Shown piece by piece: positions 26,802-32,844 of a stretch of DNA of 64,000 bases. The translations under genes and the position numbers were made by a program. Numbering within the stretch: position 1 is the first letter of the stretch; each line of letters starts with the position of its first letter. Source of the stretch: an uncultured Clostridia bacterium (GTDB lineage Bacteria > Bacillota > Clostridia > Christensenellales > CAG-917); the NCBI GenBank assembly GCA_947382865.1, contig CANDBF010000001.1, positions 9,543 through 73,542 on the forward strand, in the 5' to 3' direction. The notes under the pieces were generated by a model. That model ran no database searches. It had not been told where the DNA came from and saw nothing but the letters and a program-made list of their open reading frames with translations.

Positions 26802-27782
26802 ATGAAATCTTGGCACATCGGAAATTTTAATGAAGTCAGCCTCAGCGAAGGCACTCTTGTTCCGCGCGAAGGCGAGGTCAAGTTGAAAATTTCAAAGGTG
26901 GCTCTTTCCTCCACCGATATGTCCTGTTTTGCCAATAGAGAGGACAAAAATACGGTCACCGTTCCCGCGCACGCGGCTATCGCCTACGTGACCAACGACG
27001 ACGAGGAGCTGGGCTTCAAGCTCGGCGCGCGCGTTGTGGTCAATCCTTTTGTGAAGTCCGTCGAGCACGGTGAGACGGTTGTAAGGACTATGGGAGTGGA
27101 TACCGACGGTCTGTTGCAGGACTTCGTGTGCGTGCCCTCCGAAAACGTGTTTCATCTTCCCGACGGGATAACCGACGAGGAAGCCGTGTTTACGGAGTGT
27201 ATAGCGATGGGCAACAAGGTGTTTTCCGAGCTTCCGTGCGACAGGGGAGACTACGTCGTGATAGTCGGAGCGGGTACGCTCGGGCTTATACTTTGTCAGC
27301 TTGCTATTTACTATCAGATGGTGCCCATACTCGTCGATTTGGATAACGACAAGCTGGAGCTGGCAAGGAAATGGGATATATGCTATACGCTCAATCCCAC
27401 CTATGACAACCTCGAACGCAAGGTCGAGGAAATTACGGGCGGCAGAATGAGCGAGGCGGCTGTATTCACCACCGATGGCGTGGGGCTGAACTCTGTTCTG
27501 CATCTGGTCAAGAACGGAAGCGAGGTTGTGATAGCCGGCTATTCCACATCCGAAAAGCACTATGTGGGCAGTGATTTTATTCTGAAAAAGCAGCTTCGTC
27601 TCAAAGGCGTCTGCAACGGCTTCGGTGAAATGCCCTCCGCAATAAACCTGCTCGCCAACAAGATTGTGCGCATTGACGGCATTATCACCGCGCGCGAGAC
27701 TTTCGACGACGTGCCGAAGATTTTCGAGGAGTGCGTGAAGTATCCGTATCAGTACAACACGGTGCTTGTAGACGTGGATTGA
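26802..27782 (+). CDS. Medium-chain dehydrogenase/reductase (zinc-ADH-like) family protein, zinc ligands not conserved
   Basis: GroES-like N-terminus plus the Rossmann motif VIVGAGTLGLILCQLA. The usual GxCxxD / GHE catalytic-zinc positions read ALSSTDM / PAHAA, and no structural-zinc Cys cluster is visible. Confidence 0.55.
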   Translation: MKSWHIGNFNEVSLSEGTLVPREGEVKLKISKVALSSTDMSCFANREDKNTVTVPAHAAIAYVTNDDEELGFKLGARVVVNPFVKSVEHGETVVRTMGVDTDGLLQDFVCVPSENVFHLPDGITDEEAVFTECIAMGNKVFSELPCDRGDYVVIVGAGTLGLILCQLAIYYQMVPILVDLDNDKLELARKWDICYTLNPTYDNLERKVEEITGGRMSEAAVFTTDGVGLNSVLHLVKNGSEVVIAGYSTSEKHYVGSDFILKKQLRLKGVCNGFGEMPSAINLLANKIVRIDGIITARETFDDVPKIFEECVKYPYQYNTVLVDVD

Positions 27783-27820
27783 TATTATAAGAGCATAGCG
27801 AAAAATATTGAGTATATTAT

Positions 27821-27850
27821 AAAACAGACGTTCGTGCGAACGTCTGTTTT
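27821..27850. terminator. Bidirectional intrinsic terminator
   Basis: AAAACAGACGTTCG-tg-CGAACGTCTGTTTT is flanked by A- and T-runs. It lies between the convergent MDR gene (+) and the 1014-aa gene (-). Confidence 0.8.
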
Positions 27851-27967
27851 ATGTTGTTTATGTTTTTTTATTATGCCGATATTTATAAAACGGCGTTTTA
27901 CCAAAGTATATTTTGGGCTTAAACTTTCTTTTCCGTCATTATGCCGTTAATACTTTTGTCAAGACGG

Positions 27968-30900
27968 TCAGAAGTTAAGGAAACGGGAGTATCGCTCGAT
28001 AAGGGCGGCGATCTCGTCCAGATCCGTCAGCCTCTTGCCTATCGCGACTTTCAGATACTTGCCGCCAAACGCCTCGAACACTTCTTCCGATACGGGCAGT
28101 AGAGCGGAGAACTCTTCATAGGTGAACAGACCGTATTCCTCTATATCCGCCTGCATTTTGTCCGCGTCGTAGCGCATCGTGTCTTTGTCTACCTCGAAAA
28201 TGTTCGCAAACGGCTCGGTCGCGCCCGGCATAGTCAGCATTCCGTTTACGTAGTAGCATAGGTGTCCGTAGGTGACGGGGCTGTACGCTACCGTGGTTTC
28301 GGTCGTTATATCCACCGACAGGAGCGTGACCGCGGTATTGACTTTGTTTCCGCTTGTGTCTGCACTTTGCTTGCTGAATCTGTGTCCGATATACTTAGCC
28401 GCGTCGTTGCGCAGATATACGTACTTGCCTTGGTCGACGTCGAAGAATGCGTGCTCGGATATGACCTTCACCATCGTGCCGTCCGAGAAATTCAAATTGA
28501 TAACTTCGTATTCCCCGCGCTCGTCTCTGTCGATGAAGAGAATTGGCGCAACGTCGTACGTCCCCGTGAACAGGTTCCACACGAGCAGAATTTCGTCGCC
28601 CGTCAGATTCTCCACCGCCTTTTGCGATCCGTCCGCAAGGGTAATCATACTGCCCTCGGCGATACAGCTATCTTTCCACTTTGCGTACAGCGTTCCGTTG
28701 GGCGCGGAGGAGATATTTGCATATCTTGTTCCTGAAAAATCCGACGTGGTGTACCAGCCTTCAAACCCGTTTGTAACGCAGTGATAAGGATTGGTAACGT
28801 CAGAGACACTCATATTGGTAGGATTGGTGTTCGATTTTACGAATGAGGTTACGTATGGGTGAATGTTTTGCGAGATCGAACATCCCCACACGACGGGTCT
28901 ATCCGAGTCAATCCATTTAGAGTTCCAACCTTTAAGTGCAGACGCAGGCTGACAATATACCGTCAGAAGAGGGCACTCGCTGAAAGCCCCGAAACCAATT
29001 GTCGCAACATTCTTGGGAATTAATACGCTGGTTAAATTAGGACAACCTAAAAACGCCCCCGAATCAATTTTTGTTACGCCGGTAGGGAAGTTTATGTAGC
29101 ATATGCCGCTGGCTGCAAAAGCGGCGATTCCGATTTCTATAAGGCTACTGTTTTCGGGAATTTCTACAATAGATAGCTTTGTGCATTGCGAAAAAGCACC
29201 GTTACCGATGGTCTCTAACGTATTAGGCAGACTCGCGCTAATGGCCGATGAACAACCGTAAAACGCGTGGTTACCGATATATTTTAATTGTTGGTCTGTA
29301 AACAGATTTATGGTCAGGCTCTCGCATTCATAAAACGCCTCATTTTCGATAGCTGAAATGTTCAGCGGGAATTTCAAAGTTTTTAGTCTGCTACATTTGT
29401 AAAAGCATTTATCTGAAATAGTTTTGATTTGATTTTCTTCAGCAAACGTGACGGTATTCAAATACGGGCATTCGCTAAAAGCGCCTACTCCTAATTCTTT
29501 TAGGCTGGACGGGAAAGCGACACCGGTTATAGCTTGTTTAGCGAATGCGGAATCAGCTATTTTTGTGACGGCTTTTCCGTTGTGCGTATAGGGAATAGCT
29601 ATGTTTCCTAAAAGCGGAAATCTAGTGCCCGTAATTGCAAGCTCGTTTTCGGAAATGTCTTCCGTCGTGTATGGAACGTTGCGGTGTCCGCATTCTGTGC
29701 ATCTGACTTCGTTTTTATTCTCCAAATAATTGTCATATGTATGTTCGTGATTGATTTTAAGTGAAACATATCCATAACACCACTTTTCATTAATCCAAAT
29801 TCTTGAATATGATCTATACGTTGGATGCCATCCTAAGTGAGTTATAAAACCGAATGATGAAGATTTACTTTGATAACCATATGCGACAGCATAATGATTT
29901 TGATTTAGAGTTTCGCCACTTATAGCTATGCATACAGGTCTATCGTTGTCTATTTCTGATTTTACATTATTTGTTATGCTTCCTAACACACTTGAGTCAA
30001 CTTCGTAATTTATAGGTGAACTGAGTATTGCGTTGCGTTCCGTTAGTATTTCATCTATTGCATCTTTGATATTTCCAGTAAGAGGTATAAGTGGTAATTT
30101 ATCTTTAATATATTTAAAATAAGTACCGTTGTCGGTTTCATTTATACCGCTACTGCCCATAATATATTTATTAATTGCAGAGGGGTCTGAGCAATAATTT
30201 GGGTTTAATTCTGAATTAGCTAGTGTATTATTTTTAATATCCCATCCGTTTAAGTGTTTATCTGCAATAATACGTCTATCATTGTAATAATTATTATAGT
30301 TTAGCAGTATTTGGGTAGCAACGCTTGCGCAGGTTCCAGTAGTATTATTTCCATAAGTTGGCTCATTGGGGAAATATTCATGATTTTGTATGTAAGTAGT
30401 TCCTGCGGTTCCTGGTAAATCTCCGTCTTCTAAATCTTTCGAATTGGATGGCATATGAGAAGACGACAAAGTGTTTGAAAGTATTGATAAATTTTCATTA
30501 CTTAAAGTAGTTGTAGTGTTTTCACAATCAAGTTTATCCAATATACTTTTAGAGAGCTTTATAATTTCATCTTGCGATAAAAGAAGTTGTTCATTTGTAA
30601 GTAAATCAACAAAGTATCCGTTTTCTTTCTTTAAATATTTAGTAGGTCCGCCATAATACTTTTTTGTATTTTGTTCGTATGGTAAATTGCTTAAAGAAGA
30701 GTATTCCAATAATTCTTGATTGGAAATTAGAAAAATTGCATAATCGTTATCATTGCTTATTAATATGTAATCTAGAGAATCATTATAATTATATAAATGT
30801 TCATAAACAAGATTATTGTTTTCACCAAAATGCTCTTCTGCTAAAACTTGTATTCTTAAAACAGCATTATCTATTGCATAAGCGGTATGAATTGATGAAT

Positions 30901-31012
30901 TAAATGCATTTGTTAAGAAAATACAGCTTAATAGTAATAAGCAAATTAAGCATATTAGTGATAATTTTGTAATTATTAAAAGTTTTTCATTCGTGTTCAT
31001 CGTTTTCTCCAT
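27968..31012 (-). CDS. Secreted multidomain protein: pro-region + papain-fold Cys-peptidase-like domain + 9 BspA-type LRRs + Flg_new-like repeat + Hint domain + unknown C-terminal tail
   Basis: The signal ends in TAYA. Candidate catalytic residues lie in TGTCASVATQILLNY and NQNHYAVAYGY...HLGWHP. Nine repeats of I(G/S)xxAFxxCxxL follow, then GFEGWYTTSDFSGTRYANISSAPNGTLYAKW. The Hint starts at CIAEGSMITLADGSQKAVENLTGDEILLVW and ends near YYVNGMLTMPG. The likely true start is ATG 31000, which has a GGAGA Shine-Dalgarno. Confidence 0.7.
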   Translation of the reverse strand: MEKTMNTNEKLLIITKLSLICLICLLLLSCIFLTNAFNSSIHTAYAIDNAVLRIQVLAEEHFGENNNLVYEHLYNYNDSLDYILISNDNDYAIFLISNQELLEYSSLSNLPYEQNTKKYYGGPTKYLKKENGYFVDLLTNEQLLLSQDEIIKLSKSILDKLDCENTTTTLSNENLSILSNTLSSSHMPSNSKDLEDGDLPGTAGTTYIQNHEYFPNEPTYGNNTTGTCASVATQILLNYNNYYNDRRIIADKHLNGWDIKNNTLANSELNPNYCSDPSAINKYIMGSSGINETDNGTYFKYIKDKLPLIPLTGNIKDAIDEILTERNAILSSPINYEVDSSVLGSITNNVKSEIDNDRPVCIAISGETLNQNHYAVAYGYQSKSSSFGFITHLGWHPTYRSYSRIWINEKWCYGYVSLKINHEHTYDNYLENKNEVRCTECGHRNVPYTTEDISENELAITGTRFPLLGNIAIPYTHNGKAVTKIADSAFAKQAITGVAFPSSLKELGVGAFSECPYLNTVTFAEENQIKTISDKCFYKCSRLKTLKFPLNISAIENEAFYECESLTINLFTDQQLKYIGNHAFYGCSSAISASLPNTLETIGNGAFSQCTKLSIVEIPENSSLIEIGIAAFAASGICYINFPTGVTKIDSGAFLGCPNLTSVLIPKNVATIGFGAFSECPLLTVYCQPASALKGWNSKWIDSDRPVVWGCSISQNIHPYVTSFVKSNTNPTNMSVSDVTNPYHCVTNGFEGWYTTSDFSGTRYANISSAPNGTLYAKWKDSCIAEGSMITLADGSQKAVENLTGDEILLVWNLFTGTYDVAPILFIDRDERGEYEVINLNFSDGTMVKVISEHAFFDVDQGKYVYLRNDAAKYIGHRFSKQSADTSGNKVNTAVTLLSVDITTETTVAYSPVTYGHLCYYVNGMLTMPGATEPFANIFEVDKDTMRYDADKMQADIEEYGLFTYEEFSALLPVSEEVFEAFGGKYLKVAIGKRLTDLDEIAALIERYSRFLNF

Positions 31013-31526
31013 TATAATTTGTTTCGGTATTTATAAAACTTACCTCTGAAAATTCAATACGGCGCATGATGACTGCGATAAATATTAGATGAGGAGAAGT
31101 CATATGATTGCCAAACGTGTTGTGATATTTCGGATTGCAACCAAATTTGACGGTTAAGGTTTTATCGTTGAGTATTATGTCTTTTAGCTCAAATGCATGA
31201 CCGATTTGTGATATTTCCCAATGTACTAGTAGAATCTGATTATCAAAATTAACTGAAACGGGAAATTCTTTGAACGTTTCTTCAAATTCTGCCTGGTCAC
31301 TAATTATATACGACTGTTCGGGAGTTATGTGTGATTGCTCGTTTGCGTTATCTAGGAACTGCATATAAAACCAATCGCTTGGGGGATTGTAAAGAGTTGC
31401 AAGATATTGACGTATATTAGTGTAGTTGGGTTTTTCCGTATTACTGCAACCCCAAAAAAATACAGAGCACATAATAAGCAAAATTCCCGTTACTACCATT
31501 GTTTTCAACAATTTGCGTATTTTCAT
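30987..31526 (-). CDS. Lipoprotein of unknown function, co-transcribed with the protease-LRR-Hint gene
   Basis: 179 aa from ATG 31526, with a GAGGGAGGA Shine-Dalgarno. The signal MKIRKLLKTMVVTGILLIMCSVFFWGCS looks lipobox-like. The 3' end overlaps the downstream gene start. The gene is AT-rich. Confidence 0.6.
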   Translation of the reverse strand: MKIRKLLKTMVVTGILLIMCSVFFWGCSNTEKPNYTNIRQYLATLYNPPSDWFYMQFLDNANEQSHITPEQSYIISDQAEFEETFKEFPVSVNFDNQILLVHWEISQIGHAFELKDIILNDKTLTVKFGCNPKYHNTFGNHMTSPHLIFIAVIMRRIEFSEVSFINTETNYNGENDEHE

Positions 31527-31597
31527 GCGCAATCCTCCCTCATATAATAAAAATATATTAATCAAAAAAATATATGTGATATTATTTCAAGTCTAGC

Positions 31598-32029
31598 TTA
31601 ATGTATTGAACAAAACATGTCAATAGTGAATTGGTTATTTGTATTTTTTTCGCACGATTCGCCGAAAGGAGAATTATTTATAGTAAAGGCATAATCGGGT
31701 GAAACTGAACGTAAGCCGCTTGTTTTTTCAAGTTTTTATAGTATCGATTACATTCTGTTTTGAAGGTTCTGCTAATAGAAGTTAATTGAATCTGGAAATT
31801 CCTTGAATATTTCGTCGGATTTTTCCTAGTTGCCGACTAAATGTGTTTGATTACCTAGAAAATGCATATTGAACCAATCGCTTTTGGGATTGTAGAGTGT
31901 CGCGTCGAAGTTTTTGATATTGGCATAGTTTGGGGTTGCGGTTACGACGCAACTGCACAGCGCAATCGAGCAGAATAAAAGAATTAAGGCGATTAGAACT
32001 ATGAATTTTGTCGTTTTACGCATATGCAT
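31598..32029 (-). pseudogene. Decayed tandem paralog of the 179-aa lipoprotein gene
   Basis: The single frame is collinear with the intact copy: PNYANIKNFDATLYNPKSDWFNMHFL vs PNYTNIRQYLATLYNPPSDWFYMQFL, and EKSDEIFKEFPDSINF vs DQAEFEETFKEFPVSVNF. It is interrupted by four in-frame stops at 31826, 31772, 31748 and 31736. Confidence 0.65.
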
Positions 32030-32037
32030 TCTCCTTT

Positions 32038-32844
32038 CTATCCCGCGACGACGGAGCGCATAAACGCAAGAGTGTGCTCTACGGTTTGTGTAAGCTGGGT
32101 TTGCCTTTCCTGCTCCGTTAAAGCGGAATTGTCGGGGCGCGAAGTGACCGCATAGAAGCCCGTATAACCTCCGTGCGACAGCCTTACGTACTGCGTAGCG
32201 GCCAGGTTAAGACGGGTTTTGGAGTCCGCGACCATTTCGTCCGATACTATGCCTTCGCCGTCGGCTTCGAGCACTAGAGTGGGAAGAGATAAATTTGCTA
32301 CCGAGTCGTAAACCTTTACCACCTGTCCGTTTTCATCGAAGGTGAGATTGCCGTCCTTGTCAAGCACCTGTCTCGACGAGCATATGGGCGAGTAGAGGGC
32401 TATGCCGAGTACGGCGGTCGGATTTTCCTGCGCACGGCGCACTGCGGCGCCACCGCCCAGCCCGTGTCCGCCTACGAAAAACCTTACGTTCGTATATTTT
32501 TCAAATGCGGGCTCTATGGCTTTGTACGCGCCGTAGGAAGAGCCTTTATCGAATTTTGGGATTATCACAATATATCCTTGTCTTGCAAGCGCCTCGCCGA
32601 GATAGGCATATTGCGACGACGGAATCAGCGTGCCGACGTAGAACACGAGACCGTATCTGTACGGGATATTCTGCGGCTCGTATATAAGCGCGTCCTCGGC
32701 GTCCGTCACCGAAATATCGAAGCTGTTGTCGTGCGAATAGAAATCGTCTTCCTTGTTACACGCAGAAAATCCGAGCGCAGAAATTACGCTTATCGCGATT
32801 GCCAGAAGCAAGTATAAGGGTTTTACGAAATGGAATCTGCGCAT
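32038..32844 (-). CDS. Alpha/beta-hydrolase-fold lipoprotein (dienelactone hydrolase/chlorophyllase-like), nucleophile motif altered
   Basis: Lipobox ALGFSAC. The fold pattern includes GLVFYVGT...GYIVIIPKF... The nucleophile elbow reads FVGGHGLGGG, that is G-H-G-L-G instead of G-x-S-x-G. Confidence 0.5.
   Translation of the reverse strand: MRRFHFVKPLYLLLAIAISVISALGFSACNKEDDFYSHDNSFDISVTDAEDALIYEPQNIPYRYGLVFYVGTLIPSSQYAYLGEALARQGYIVIIPKFDKGSSYGAYKAIEPAFEKYTNVRFFVGGHGLGGGAAVRRAQENPTAVLGIALYSPICSSRQVLDKDGNLTFDENGQVVKVYDSVANLSLPTLVLEADGEGIVSDEMVADSKTRLNLAATQYVRLSHGGYTGFYAVTSRPDNSALTEQERQTQLTQTVEHTLAFMRSVVAG

Follow-up and report, generated by a model that had tools for sequence, protein, structure and literature searches.

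A predicted Hog-like Hint-tail module ends a secreted peptidase-LRR protein and thousands of other secreted proteins of gut Clostridia

A secreted peptidase-LRR protein and its neighborhood

We analyzed a stretch of 64,000 nucleotides from an uncultured Clostridia bacterium (the window), in which a minus-strand ORF encodes a protein of 1014 residues. Along this protein run a signal segment, a propeptide-like domain, a candidate Cys peptidase (C228/H373), LRRs, a Flg_new repeat, a Hint domain, and a tail. The features of the locus are listed in window coordinates.

26802-27782, plus strand: Zn-dependent dehydrogenase gene, convergent
27818-27853, unstranded: terminator, a 16-bp hairpin between the ORF and the convergent gene
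27968-31012, minus strand: whole ORF, 1014 aa plus stop, ATG start, encoding the secreted peptidase-LRR-Flg_new-Hint-tail protein
27971-28222, minus strand: acidic five-helix tail, residues 931-1014, 84 aa (AF2 model, alignments, tail profile)
28223-28666, minus strand: Hedgehog-type Hint domain, residues 783-930 (AF2, Foldseek, hhalign against 1at0, conservation, Pfam census)
28664-28666, minus strand: TGT codon of C783, Hint residue 1 and predicted thioester nucleophile (Cys conservation); predicted scissile bond S782-C783
28673-28867, minus strand: Flg_new (Listeria-Bacteroides) repeat, whose final LYAKW stands three residues ahead of C783
28877-29635, minus strand: nine BspA-type LRRs, residues 460-712 (Pfam LRR_5 and AF..C cores)
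29678-29767, minus strand: His/Cys motif (H422, H424, C438, C441, H443) closing the peptidase domain (family alignment)
29738-30400, minus strand: putative divergent papain-clan Cys-peptidase core, residues ~205-425 (sub-threshold profiles and conserved Cys/His)
30413-30871, minus strand: propeptide-like N-domain, residues 48-200 (near-invariant Y/D/E/G/P positions in the peptidase-family alignment)
30875-31012, minus strand: Sec signal or signal-anchor, residues 1-46 (sequence reading)
30987-31565, minus strand: lipoprotein gene, upstream, sharing 26 nt with the start of the ORF
31826-32029, minus strand: 67-aa truncated paralog of the upstream lipoprotein, 45% identity

A previous sequence-only reading of this DNA had located C228, H373, C783, and G930, and all four positions proved correct when checked against the ORF. 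It had also placed the enzymatic and adhesive domains N-terminal of a non-splicing Hint domain, as its cargo, with the tail following; this layout stands, and the full peptidase-LRR-Flg_new-Hint-tail order also occurs in the genomes of at least seven other species. The signal or transmembrane segment proposed at residues 11-46 was retained with an amended boundary, the hydrophobic stretch covering residues 11-34 and being followed by A44-Y45-A46. The same combination of hydrophobic segment and A-x-A-like pattern appears in 54 of 69 family cargos, and the N-terminal signal of the window protein may be cleaved.

The cargo enzyme is a putative divergent papain-clan Cys peptidase, an assignment that profile searches support at a sub-threshold level, every peptidase-family score lying below its curated cutoff. 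NCBIfam Mplas_Cys_pep matched the window peptidase at E 3.6e-9 (36.9 bits, cutoff 45) and Pfam Peptidase_C39_2 at E 1.7e-4 (22.6 bits against 24), while Pfam Peptidase_C10 matched the ortholog L002 at E 6.9e-5 (23.6 bits against 26). Peptidase_C39_2 was found in five of the 17 peptidase-family sequences scanned, the window's own among these five. The candidate catalytic residues proposed earlier are well conserved: C228, within TGTC, is invariant among aligned homologs spanning that site, and H373, within NHYAVAYGY, lies in a papain-like NHxxVxYGY strand; of 13 aligned homologs spanning that region, 12 keep this His. The propeptide-like domain had no Pfam match. What had been called a CxxC-containing linker belongs instead to the His/Cys motif of the peptidase family, since INHxHxY...CxxCGHR is conserved in most members; the motif weakly matches Zn_ribbon and is possibly a Zn knuckle.

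The peptidase family is rare (17 word-index homologs). Its closest known counterparts are papain-clan peptidases of the streptopain (C10) and C39-like types that have a lipoprotein partner upstream: it resembles them in its propeptide-like domain, its Cys...His order, its papain-like His strand, and its weak C10 and C39_2 profile matches, but differs from them in its divergence, its rarity, its putative His/Cys knuckle, and scores that all stay below cutoff. Lipoprotein genes homologous to the one in the window lie directly upstream of Hint-less peptidase homologs, as well as of L002, L008, L014, and L018, and enriched upstream lipoproteins follow the cargo type rather than the module. These gene positions link the lipoprotein to the peptidase family as its partner, and not to the Hint module. 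The partnership had gone unremarked in the earlier reading.

The nine BspA-type LRRs were recovered by LRR_5 (PF13306), above the Pfam threshold at 157.7 bits and E 1.7e-46, and by nine AF..C repeat cores between residues 489 and 680. The single Flg_new repeat (PF09479) is sub-threshold in the window copy (residues 750-778, E 1.4e-3, 19.1 bits against a cutoff of 27) but significant at the same position in relatives, including P0001, which is 83% identical to the window protein. Downstream, the terminator and convergent gene that had been noted were confirmed as the hairpin and the Zn-dehydrogenase gene.

A Hint domain obligately coupled to a conserved tail

The AF2 model of residues 775-1014 (pLDDT 92.4, pTM 0.87) was searched with Foldseek against the PDB. 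It matched DnaB mini-inteins, the Tetrahymena BIL2 structure 6y75 (rank 2), the C. thermocellum BIL domain 2lwy, and Hedgehog 1at0 with probability 1.0, E-values of 7e-9 to 2e-6, and target TM-scores of 0.7-0.85, the mini-inteins ranking above Hedgehog. The structure search therefore confirmed that, by predicted fold, residues 783-930 belong to the Hint superfamily. The domain begins exactly at C783, as had been proposed: conservation in the family starts at this residue, and nothing N-terminal of the Cys is conserved, the preceding residue being mostly Ser.

At the sequence level, PF01079 Hint matched weakly, at E 3e-3 to 3e-4 (17.5-21.1 bits against a gathering cutoff of 29.7), over profile positions 11-146 of 213, with the SRR part outside the match, and every Pfam Hint score stayed below the gathering threshold. 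An hhalign comparison with Drosophila Hh-C, whose sequence was verified against 1at0, was gapless but scored E 1.3e-3 and a probability of 19%. It paired C783 with C1, D828 with D46 (ILFIDRD versus ILFMDRN), and H854 with H72 of Hedgehog. Over 141 representative clusters these positions are kept in 139/139 (C1), 141/142 (D46), and 142/142 (H72) cases, the equivalent of Glu71 is near-invariant, and the block B Thr (TxxH) is replaced by Ile. The residues that mark a catalytic member of the Hint superfamily, a first Cys or Ser and the block B His, are thus present as C783 and H854. In Hedgehog, Asp46 serves as general base for the incoming nucleophile.

The domain ends VNGMLTMPG, followed by A, with P929 and G930 each kept in 141/142 clusters. 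Both in the window protein and in the family conservation, this end carries no terminal His-Asn and no following Cys/Ser/Thr, in agreement with the sequence-only reading. Since a terminal Asn or His-Asn and a +1 nucleophile are missing, the domain can neither splice nor perform Asn-driven C-terminal cleavage. A Pfam census of 97 modules (E <= 0.1) found PF01079 Hint in 56 and Intein_splicing in one. PT-HINT (PF07591) and Hint_2 (PF13403) were absent from the 25 most-matched of the 32 Pfam families in these modules, a range that reaches down to single-member families, and Hint_2 had no match to the window protein at E <= 10. By these profile matches, PF01079 appears to be practically alone among the Hint-family Pfam models in recognizing the module.

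The tail has a pI of 4.3, looks soluble, and has no TM segment; N937 and K993 (in a GKG/GKR loop) are essentially invariant. No linker separates it from the Hint domain, AF2 models both as one unit, and in the predicted structures its first 20 residues are confidently ordered only with Hint present. It had no Pfam, NCBIfam, PDB, or toxin match and no known wall-binding repeat, in line with the earlier view that it is not a recognizable toxin. It bears no detectable resemblance to the SRR of Hedgehog or to domains that bind lipids or the wall. Neither Hint nor tail was found without its partner in 1.4 Mb of loci; the two are obligately coupled.

The architecture is not confined to a single protein: the module, formed by the last 232 residues of the window protein, proved to be a previously undescribed unit that thousands of secreted proteins in these bacteria carry. 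The tail profile matched 2124 protein clusters (at 50% identity), and the best 150 matches all lay at the C-terminus or within ~135 residues of it. In most members the module spans 222-236 aa between its Cys and the stop; it is always C-terminal, and its copies are ~60% identical to one another across hundreds of proteins. Their hosts are gut Clostridia/Christensenellales MAGs, with several paralogous copies per genome.

The survey for the same Hint-plus-tail on other N-terminal cargo revealed a diverse range. Among 59 family cargos, Peptidase_S8 occurred in 15, LRR_5 in 32, and Flg_new in 34; further cargos include M64, trypsin-like, and window-type Cys peptidases, alpha/beta-hydrolases, and one C10 match. 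The cargos contain 19 Pfam families, and no known wall or membrane anchor domain is among them. The cargos carry N-terminal signal segments with long hydrophobic stretches (median ~22 aa), and a small-x-small motif, by a permissive test, lies 5-15 residues past the stretch in nearly every member. Over 74 module loci, the gene families found downstream are each shared by 4-5 loci at most, which argues that there is no immunity gene, as the absence of an immunity-type ORF in the window had suggested. Likewise, no acceptor candidate or module-linked partner gene was found near the module.

Proposed autoprocessing and alternative readings

We consider it probable, from the predicted structure and residue conservation, that the module is a Hog-like autoprocessing module of a Sec-exported protein, forming a thioester at S782-C783 and severing the cargo. 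Sec would export the precursor, and the module would fold outside the cell. The C783 thiol would then attack the S782 carbonyl in an N-to-S acyl shift assisted by H854 and D828, and an incoming nucleophile would resolve the thioester, separating the ~80 kDa peptidase-LRR-Flg_new cargo from the 25-kDa Hint-tail. In the favored view, which follows Hedgehog logic, the tail, which forms one predicted unit with Hint and carries invariant polar residues, would position this nucleophile, and the cargo C-terminus would pass to a specific cell-surface acceptor. The main alternative to such a transfer is plain hydrolysis or thiolysis, that is, simple release. That cleavage occurs, its place and timing, and the identity of the nucleophile are what we infer. 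C783-dependent cleavage itself seems likely; that its product would be an adduct and not a free carboxylate is a tentative proposal. We can only speculate that the tail recognizes an acceptor and that the cargo would be re-attached instead of merely released.

Alternatively, though we find it somewhat unlikely, the tail might be a non-covalent surface retention domain, and Hint hydrolysis, or thiolysis in the reducing gut, would shed the peptidase-adhesin from the cell. The order of signal peptide, cargo, autoprotease, and anchor would then be as in MAIN-domain proteins, a comparable layout having been proposed for bacterial GAIN/MAIN proteins (2026 Brogan & Rudner preprint). The lack of another anchor among the Pfam families of the cargos fits this order, hydrolytic N-terminal cleavage is known for Hint alone (BIL domains), and ~5% of members carry a His/Asn/Gly-rich, basic-ended extension beyond the tail that could bind anionic wall polymers. 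However, the tail itself is acidic, with neither a TM segment nor a database match, and is fused to Hint without a linker as a single AF2 unit, while constitutive, single-turnover shedding would undo adhesion for the pure LRR/Flg_new adhesins. The invariant D46 equivalent also speaks against it, as Hall et al. in 1997 reportedly found D46 of Hedgehog dispensable for thioester formation.

It is improbable that the Hint has no catalytic activity and serves for structure or binding, with the protein staying whole. The block B replacement of Thr by Ile and the uniformly sub-threshold profile scores would agree with this, but Cys1, His72, Asp46, and Glu71 are near-invariant despite unrelated cargos, a pattern expected of catalysis, not scaffolding.

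Very improbable is a protein kept in the membrane by its N-terminal hydrophobic segment, in which an amine or hydroxyl on the surface of the host, a food particle, or a partner protein would react with the distal Hint thioester and bond the LRR-Flg_new arm covalently to its target. The long hydrophobic segments could be signal anchors, the binding modules abut Hint, and the second-ranked structural match, 6y75, is a BIL2 domain with a role in conjugating a ubiquitin-like protein. The process would be comparable to BIL-mediated ubiquitin-like conjugation in Tetrahymena or to thioester-domain adhesins. Yet the small-x-small motif of nearly every member is typical of signal peptidase I sites (again by the permissive test), and such a scheme gives no reason for the conserved tail and calls for a hypothetical target.

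Hardly credible, finally, is a pretoxin-HINT that frees the 84-aa tail to act as a toxin or an effector: the organization superficially resembles that of secreted Firmicutes proteins in which HINT domains often sit directly before C-terminal toxin domains (PMC3482391), but the tail is constant and toxin-unlike, with several paralogs per genome and the variable part N-terminal, no C-terminal Asn could separate it from Hint, PF07591 is absent among the most-matched families, and the 74 loci argue against an immunity gene. The earlier preference for Hedgehog over polymorphic-toxin logic is strengthened by the conserved tail, the lack of a recurring downstream gene, the invariance of D46 and H72, and PF01079 as essentially the sole Hint model.

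The Hog-like reading matters because every element of the Hog layout is there, from the secreted cargo through Hint to a short C-terminal region, and because the module retains the Hog-specific Asp and is abundant. Among the secreted proteases, lipase-like hydrolases, and LRR adhesins of uncultured, host-associated, Christensenellales-like gut bacteria, it appears to serve as a major C-terminal device. If it anchors proteins or times their release, it would define how these bacteria build their surface, and protein engineers would gain a new self-cleaving or self-conjugating tag. A true bacterial Hog, giving enzyme-free and ATP-free covalent C-terminal attachment of secreted proteases and adhesins to a tail-bound acceptor, is a possible but doubtful extension; conceivable acceptors are membrane lipids, gut sterols or bile acids, wall precursors, and host molecules. 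Such a system would constitute a sortase-independent route of surface display or lipidation in gut Clostridia and possibly the prokaryotic relative of Hedgehog's processing domain.

Comparison with known Hint systems

Inteins ligate their flanks and end in Asn (usually His-Asn) followed by Cys/Ser/Thr, where the module reads VNGMLTMPG-A. Pretoxin-HINT proteins likewise carry Hint near the C-terminus of large, secreted, repeat-containing Firmicutes proteins, but have a polymorphic C-terminal domain, an immunity gene, an Asn cleavage site, and PF07591, whereas the module has a constant tail and none of these (PF07591 as judged from the most-matched families, the immunity gene from the 74 loci). 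The poorly characterized C-terminal Hint-like proteins of proteobacteria and myxobacteria (Burglin 2008; Dassa & Pietrokovski) share with the module a signal peptide and a C-terminal Hint-like domain. By their description they are set apart: they belong to other phyla, have a conserved upstream region with two Cys where the module's cargos are unrelated, and have no helical tail described.

BIL domains resemble the module as Hint-fold autoprocessing domains of variable secreted bacterial proteins with Cys1-thioester N-terminal cleavage (predicted for the module), and in the structural matches to 2lwy and 6y75. A-type BIL domains are defined by a conserved C-terminal His-Asn (PMC7765530), which the module lacks, and for B-type BIL/Hint_2 domains, the Hint_2 model is not among the most-matched families of the 97 modules. 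Furthermore, BIL domains lie inside hypervariable regions with both flanks variable, while the module is always terminal, with one constant domain after it.

The Hog domain of Hedgehog (Hint plus SRR/ARR; PF01079) differs in being eukaryotic, the module being bacterial (gut Clostridia) and sub-threshold on PF01079. Hog has Gly before the Cys where the module mostly has Ser, and Thr in block B where the module has Ile; C143 of Hedgehog is not conserved, while a different Cys, C919, is; and the SRR has no detectable similarity to the acidic five-helix tail. The two nevertheless share a signal-peptide precursor, a cargo, a Hint domain, and a final C-terminal region of 60-85 aa, the 84-aa tail following Hint in all members on cargos with signal segments. 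Both are without splice-junction residues, their Cys1, Asp46, and His72 align gaplessly, and an Asp or His at position 46 is the mark of Hog-type Hint domains (PMC7765530).

The Hint domain and its tail

The reading frame on the reverse strand at 27968-31012 is present and encodes 1014 residues, with C228, H373, C783 (codon TGT, 28664-28666) and G930 placed as in the sequence-only reading, whose overall layout of a protease-LRR protein followed by a non-splicing Hint domain and a tail was right. Pfam searches of this protein gave a strong match to BspA-type LRRs (LRR_5, E 1.7e-46), nine AF..C repeat cores could be counted at residues 489-680, and Flg_new was matched below threshold at residues 750-778 (E 1.4e-3). 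No second copy of the C-terminal module, i.e., Hint domain plus tail, was found within the window, and the exact protein is absent from a collection of 15 billion proteins.

Features of the window discussed here
27818-27853, between the reading frame and a convergent Zn-dependent dehydrogenase gene: 16-bp hairpin
27971-28222, reverse strand: tail of the protein, position confirmed from the sequence
29678-29767, reverse strand, residues 416-445: His/Cys motif INHEH...CTECGHR, kept in most of the peptidase family
31826-32029, reverse strand: 67-aa reading frame, truncated lipoprotein paralog with 45% identity to the N-terminus of the upstream lipoprotein

By its predicted structure, the segment spanning residues 783-930 is a Hint domain. 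Structure prediction had been proposed as a check on this assignment, and AlphaFold2 with Foldseek indeed returned a Hint fold. The model, covering residues 775-1014 and built from a 97-sequence alignment, has an all-beta part and, after it, five helices (mean pLDDT 92.4, pTM 0.87). Its top Foldseek matches in the PDB were exclusively Hint-fold proteins at probability 1.0: the Ssp and Npu DnaB mini-inteins, Tetrahymena BIL2, the Mtu RecA intein, a C. thermocellum BIL domain and Drosophila Hedgehog (1at0; E 1.6e-6, target TM 0.75). Among profiles, the Hedgehog-type Hint family PF01079 matched window residues 781-915 at E 3.3e-3 (17.5 bits; cutoff 29.7). When 97 module sequences were compared with Pfam at E <= 0.1, PF01079 was matched by 56 (best 5.9e-6) and Intein_splicing by one; 32 families were reported in total, and the 25 with the most matches include neither PT-HINT nor Hint_2. 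Searching PDB sequences with the module, the module profile and the peptidase profile gave matches at noise level only, namely DnaE intein block B (E 0.5) and the AXH domain of ataxin (E 0.025). The latter, to ataxin-1 (PDB 4j2j), covers module residues ~785-860 of the family profile, and Pfam AXH was weakly matched by 7 of the 97 members (best E 0.024); this Hint-AXH similarity may reflect a remote relationship or chance.

Conservation within the family begins exactly at C783, with C-[VI]-A-x-G-[ST]-[LM]-I-T-L-A-D-G from there, and none of the 20 preceding positions reaches 60% identity in the family alignment. The domain ends in ...SPVTYGHLCYYVNGMLTMPG, where P929 and G930 are each kept in 141 of 142 representative clusters. 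Because there is neither a His-Asn pair nor a Cys, Ser or Thr after it, splicing and Asn-driven C-terminal cleavage are excluded by sequence.

The tail (residues 931-1014) is acidic rather than hydrophobic (pI 4.3; 18 D/E vs 9 K/R) and forms five short helices in AlphaFold2 models, both with the Hint domain and alone. N937 (141/142) and K993 (142/142) are essentially invariant across representative clusters, the latter in a Gly-flanked GKG loop that reads GKR in the window protein. The tail had no match in Pfam or NCBIfam apart from a chance hit to DNA_pol_B_thumb (E 0.1), and Foldseek found none in the PDB for the tail-only model (pLDDT 84.5; best E 5.4). Its first 20 residues are predicted confidently with the Hint domain (pLDDT 87-90) but not without it (54-84), and no linker separates the two; we therefore read the tail, on these models, as an integrated subdomain and not as a separate, tethered module.

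Roughly 5% of modules continue beyond the tail for a further 25-55 residues, first acidic, next rich in His, Asn and Gly (HGNHNGQGNGN...), with a basic Arg/Lys end. These extensions, for which metal or anionic wall polymers are possible ligands, occur in the word-index homologs P0005, P0032, P0107, P0155, P0168 and P0219 and in relatives' loci L004, L009, L014, L027, L035 and L043.

A constant module on unrelated cargo

The architecture is not unique, as it had first seemed: the module is family-wide and the layout recurs. A word-index search found at least 248 homologs of the C-terminal 240 residues, with identities of ~55-65%, rising to 83-88% for the closest two. When the 84-aa tail was used by itself as a profile against 1.84 billion representatives, 2124 clusters matched at E <= 1e-3, and 1503 of them reached E <= 1e-10. 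The tail lies at the C-terminus or at most ~135 residues from it in all of the best 150 of the 2124. The median length of tail-bearing proteins is 967 aa, and the longest has 3719 aa. A scan of one genome for each species gave 108 loci; 80 were retained, and by record title the hosts are almost all gut MAGs (Clostridia, Christensenella/Christensenellaceae, Borkfalkiaceae, Pumilibacteraceae), several with 2-3 copies per genome. Most full reading frames encode 650-1960 aa, of which the stretch between module Cys and stop takes up 222-236 aa; in most members the N-terminus has a basic-hydrophobic segment and, after it, a small-x-small motif. Across 1.4 Mb of loci, Hint and tail are joined in 82 reading frames, and there were no orphan cassettes of either.

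The survey of related genomes suggested by the sequence-only reading did find the module on other cargo: the regions upstream of the module Cys are unrelated between members.

Pfam families in 59 cargos
Flg_new: 34
LRR_5: 32
Peptidase_S8: 15
Peptidase_M64: 2
Trypsin_2: 2
alpha/beta-hydrolase families: 2
Peptidase_C10: 1

At the small end, the minimal members P0090 (283 aa, on a 97-kb contig) and L078:4058-4822 comprise little beyond a short N-terminal stretch and the Hint-tail; in P0090 the module is preceded by a signal peptide and ~25 residues. Their cargo would be a short peptide, and processed or modified secreted peptides are a possibility.

The window's own cargo enzyme (residues 48-460) belongs to a rare family with 17 word-index homologs at 33-45% identity, whose C-termini differ and lack a Hint domain. 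The motifs fit the reading of a Cys-peptidase core: the candidate catalytic Cys is invariant within TGTC-x-VA-x-Q-LL-x-Y-x-NYY-x-DRRII, the papain-like NH-x-x-V-x-YGY strand is kept in 12 of the 13 homologs covering that region, and a propeptide-like domain lies upstream in the family. Family profiles are consistent with it, but all scored below threshold: NCBIfam 'putative cysteine peptidase' in the window protein (E 3.6e-9), Peptidase_C39_2 (E 1.7e-4; matched by 5 of 17 sequences scanned, including the window's own) and Peptidase_C10 in the ortholog L002 (E 6.9e-5). What had been taken for a CxxC linker is part of a closing INHxHxY...CxxCGHR motif kept in most family members, which is probably a small zinc-binding knuckle ending the peptidase domain.

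By motif search, this peptidase is the module's cargo in 7 of 68 genome loci and in 26 of 147 newly retrieved representative clusters. Six of the seven genome-locus proteins contain LRR_5, five of these together with Flg_new, so the peptidase-LRR-Flg_new-module architecture is recurrent; the seventh (L008) had no Pfam match.

Gene neighbourhood and base composition

No downstream gene family recurred in more than 4-5 of 74 loci and thus there is no immunity-type partner, which extends to these loci the absence of an immunity gene first remarked in the window. Of 63 loci, at least 27 have a lipoprotein gene as the adjacent upstream gene on the same strand, compared with 64 lipoprotein genes among the 726 other genes (p = 2e-11, odds ratio 7.8). 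These lipoproteins belong to unrelated families that track cargo type. The window's (30987-31565, reverse strand), which had no match in Pfam or NCBIfam, is homologous to genes directly upstream of two Hint-less peptidase homologs. Its family stands directly upstream of the Cys peptidase with or without a Hint module (also L081:3430-3978, L082:3452-3940 and L002:6434-6934), and a second peptidase subtype (L025, L050, L076) is preceded by a different family. That the lipoproteins serve the Hint module, as its acceptor or its partner, was rejected, since the families follow the cargo and the window type also precedes Hint-less peptidases. We conclude that the upstream lipoproteins are partners of the cargo enzymes, for which they may be cognate inhibitors, chaperones or tethers.

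The 67-aa reading frame further upstream is probably a remnant of tandem duplication or cassette insertion. Beyond it, at 32038-32844 (reverse strand), lies a 268-aa lipoprotein-like frame (lipobox ...GFSAC) with no NCBIfam match, whose alpha/beta-hydrolase-like GGHGLGGG motif apparently has Gly at the nucleophile Ser position. In ~10 loci, ECF sigma factors and a recurrent family of putative anti-sigma proteins are found further upstream, which suggests dedicated regulation of these surface-protein operons.

The 268-aa frame is located just upstream of a low-GC island (29700-31900; 24-36% vs ~50%) that spans the 5' (peptidase) half of the gene, the lipoprotein gene and its truncated paralog. 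Measured across the peptidase half and the upstream lipoprotein genes, GC is 24-33%; it rises to 40-45% in the LRR stretch and to 52-54%, the genome level, in Hint and tail. An assembly chimera was rejected as the source of this jump: L002 shows the same gradient and architecture, so the mosaic is not an artefact. Such a pattern points to cargo cassettes being swapped, or following a different evolutionary course from that of the constant module.

Proposed processing and comparison with Hedgehog

Aligned to the processing half of Drosophila Hedgehog (sequence identical to PDB 1at0), the family profile runs without gaps across the first ~85 residues, at a weak score (E 1.3e-3). C783 falls on Hedgehog C1, D828 on D46 (ILFIDRD vs ILFMDRN) and H854 on H72 (VISEH vs VTPAH). 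Across 141 representative clusters, these positions are Cys in 139/139, Asp in 141/142 and His in 142/142, and E853 is kept in 141/142. Hog-type Hint domains are set apart from others by an active-site Asp or His for cholesterol activation (PMC7765530, review).

Overall, the module has a Hint fold whose first-step catalytic set is intact, lacks second-junction chemistry, and joins a constant integrated tail to variable secreted cargo. Following established Hint chemistry, an N-to-S acyl shift at S782-C783 would give a thioester to be resolved by an external nucleophile, which would separate the cargo from the 25-kDa Hint-tail. Hint domains are able to cleave without help; an additional domain that is strictly conserved and has invariant polar residues, together with the Hog-specific Asp, therefore calls for a further function. 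It is plausible that a specific acceptor takes the cargo, as in Hedgehog, and that the tail is the acceptor-recognition region, the function first ascribed to it. Adhesin cargos need attachment, and known wall or membrane anchor domains are absent from the 19 Pfam families found in the 59 cargos. Alternatively, the cargo may simply be released and the tail act as a retention element; the domain order matches the proposal for bacterial GAIN/MAIN autoproteolytic surface proteins, and no acceptor is in sight. A polymorphic-toxin logic fails three defining tests (the tail is conserved, no downstream gene recurs in 74 loci and PT-HINT is not among the listed families), which strengthens the earlier preference for a Hedgehog-like logic.

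The module differs from Hedgehog in several respects. The block B Thr of Hedgehog is Ile in the module family, and the residue preceding the Cys, an invariant Gly in Hedgehog, is Ser, Glu, Gly, Asn or Ala. When the two C-terminal strands were aligned manually, Hedgehog C143 had no counterpart, and C919 of the window protein (in HLC; codon 28256-28258, reverse strand) occupies a different position. This Cys is part of the Hint domain's penultimate strand region, is kept in at least 90% of members and could form a redox-sensitive disulfide with C783. No homology to the Hedgehog sterol-recognition region is detectable, because the PF01079 match ends at profile position 146 of 213.

We found no described bacterial Hint-plus-tail module in the open-access literature and no curated model covering it in NCBIfam or Pfam, and the few homologs that come with a source name are all called 'hypothetical protein'. 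Bürglin (2008) mentions C-terminal Hint-like domains of a proteobacterial and myxobacterial group, which is different from this family; that paper describes the origin of Hog as unknown and suggests that bacterial Hint domains might shed light on it. We class the module as a new bacterial Hog-like family in the Hint superfamily whose partner domain is novel.
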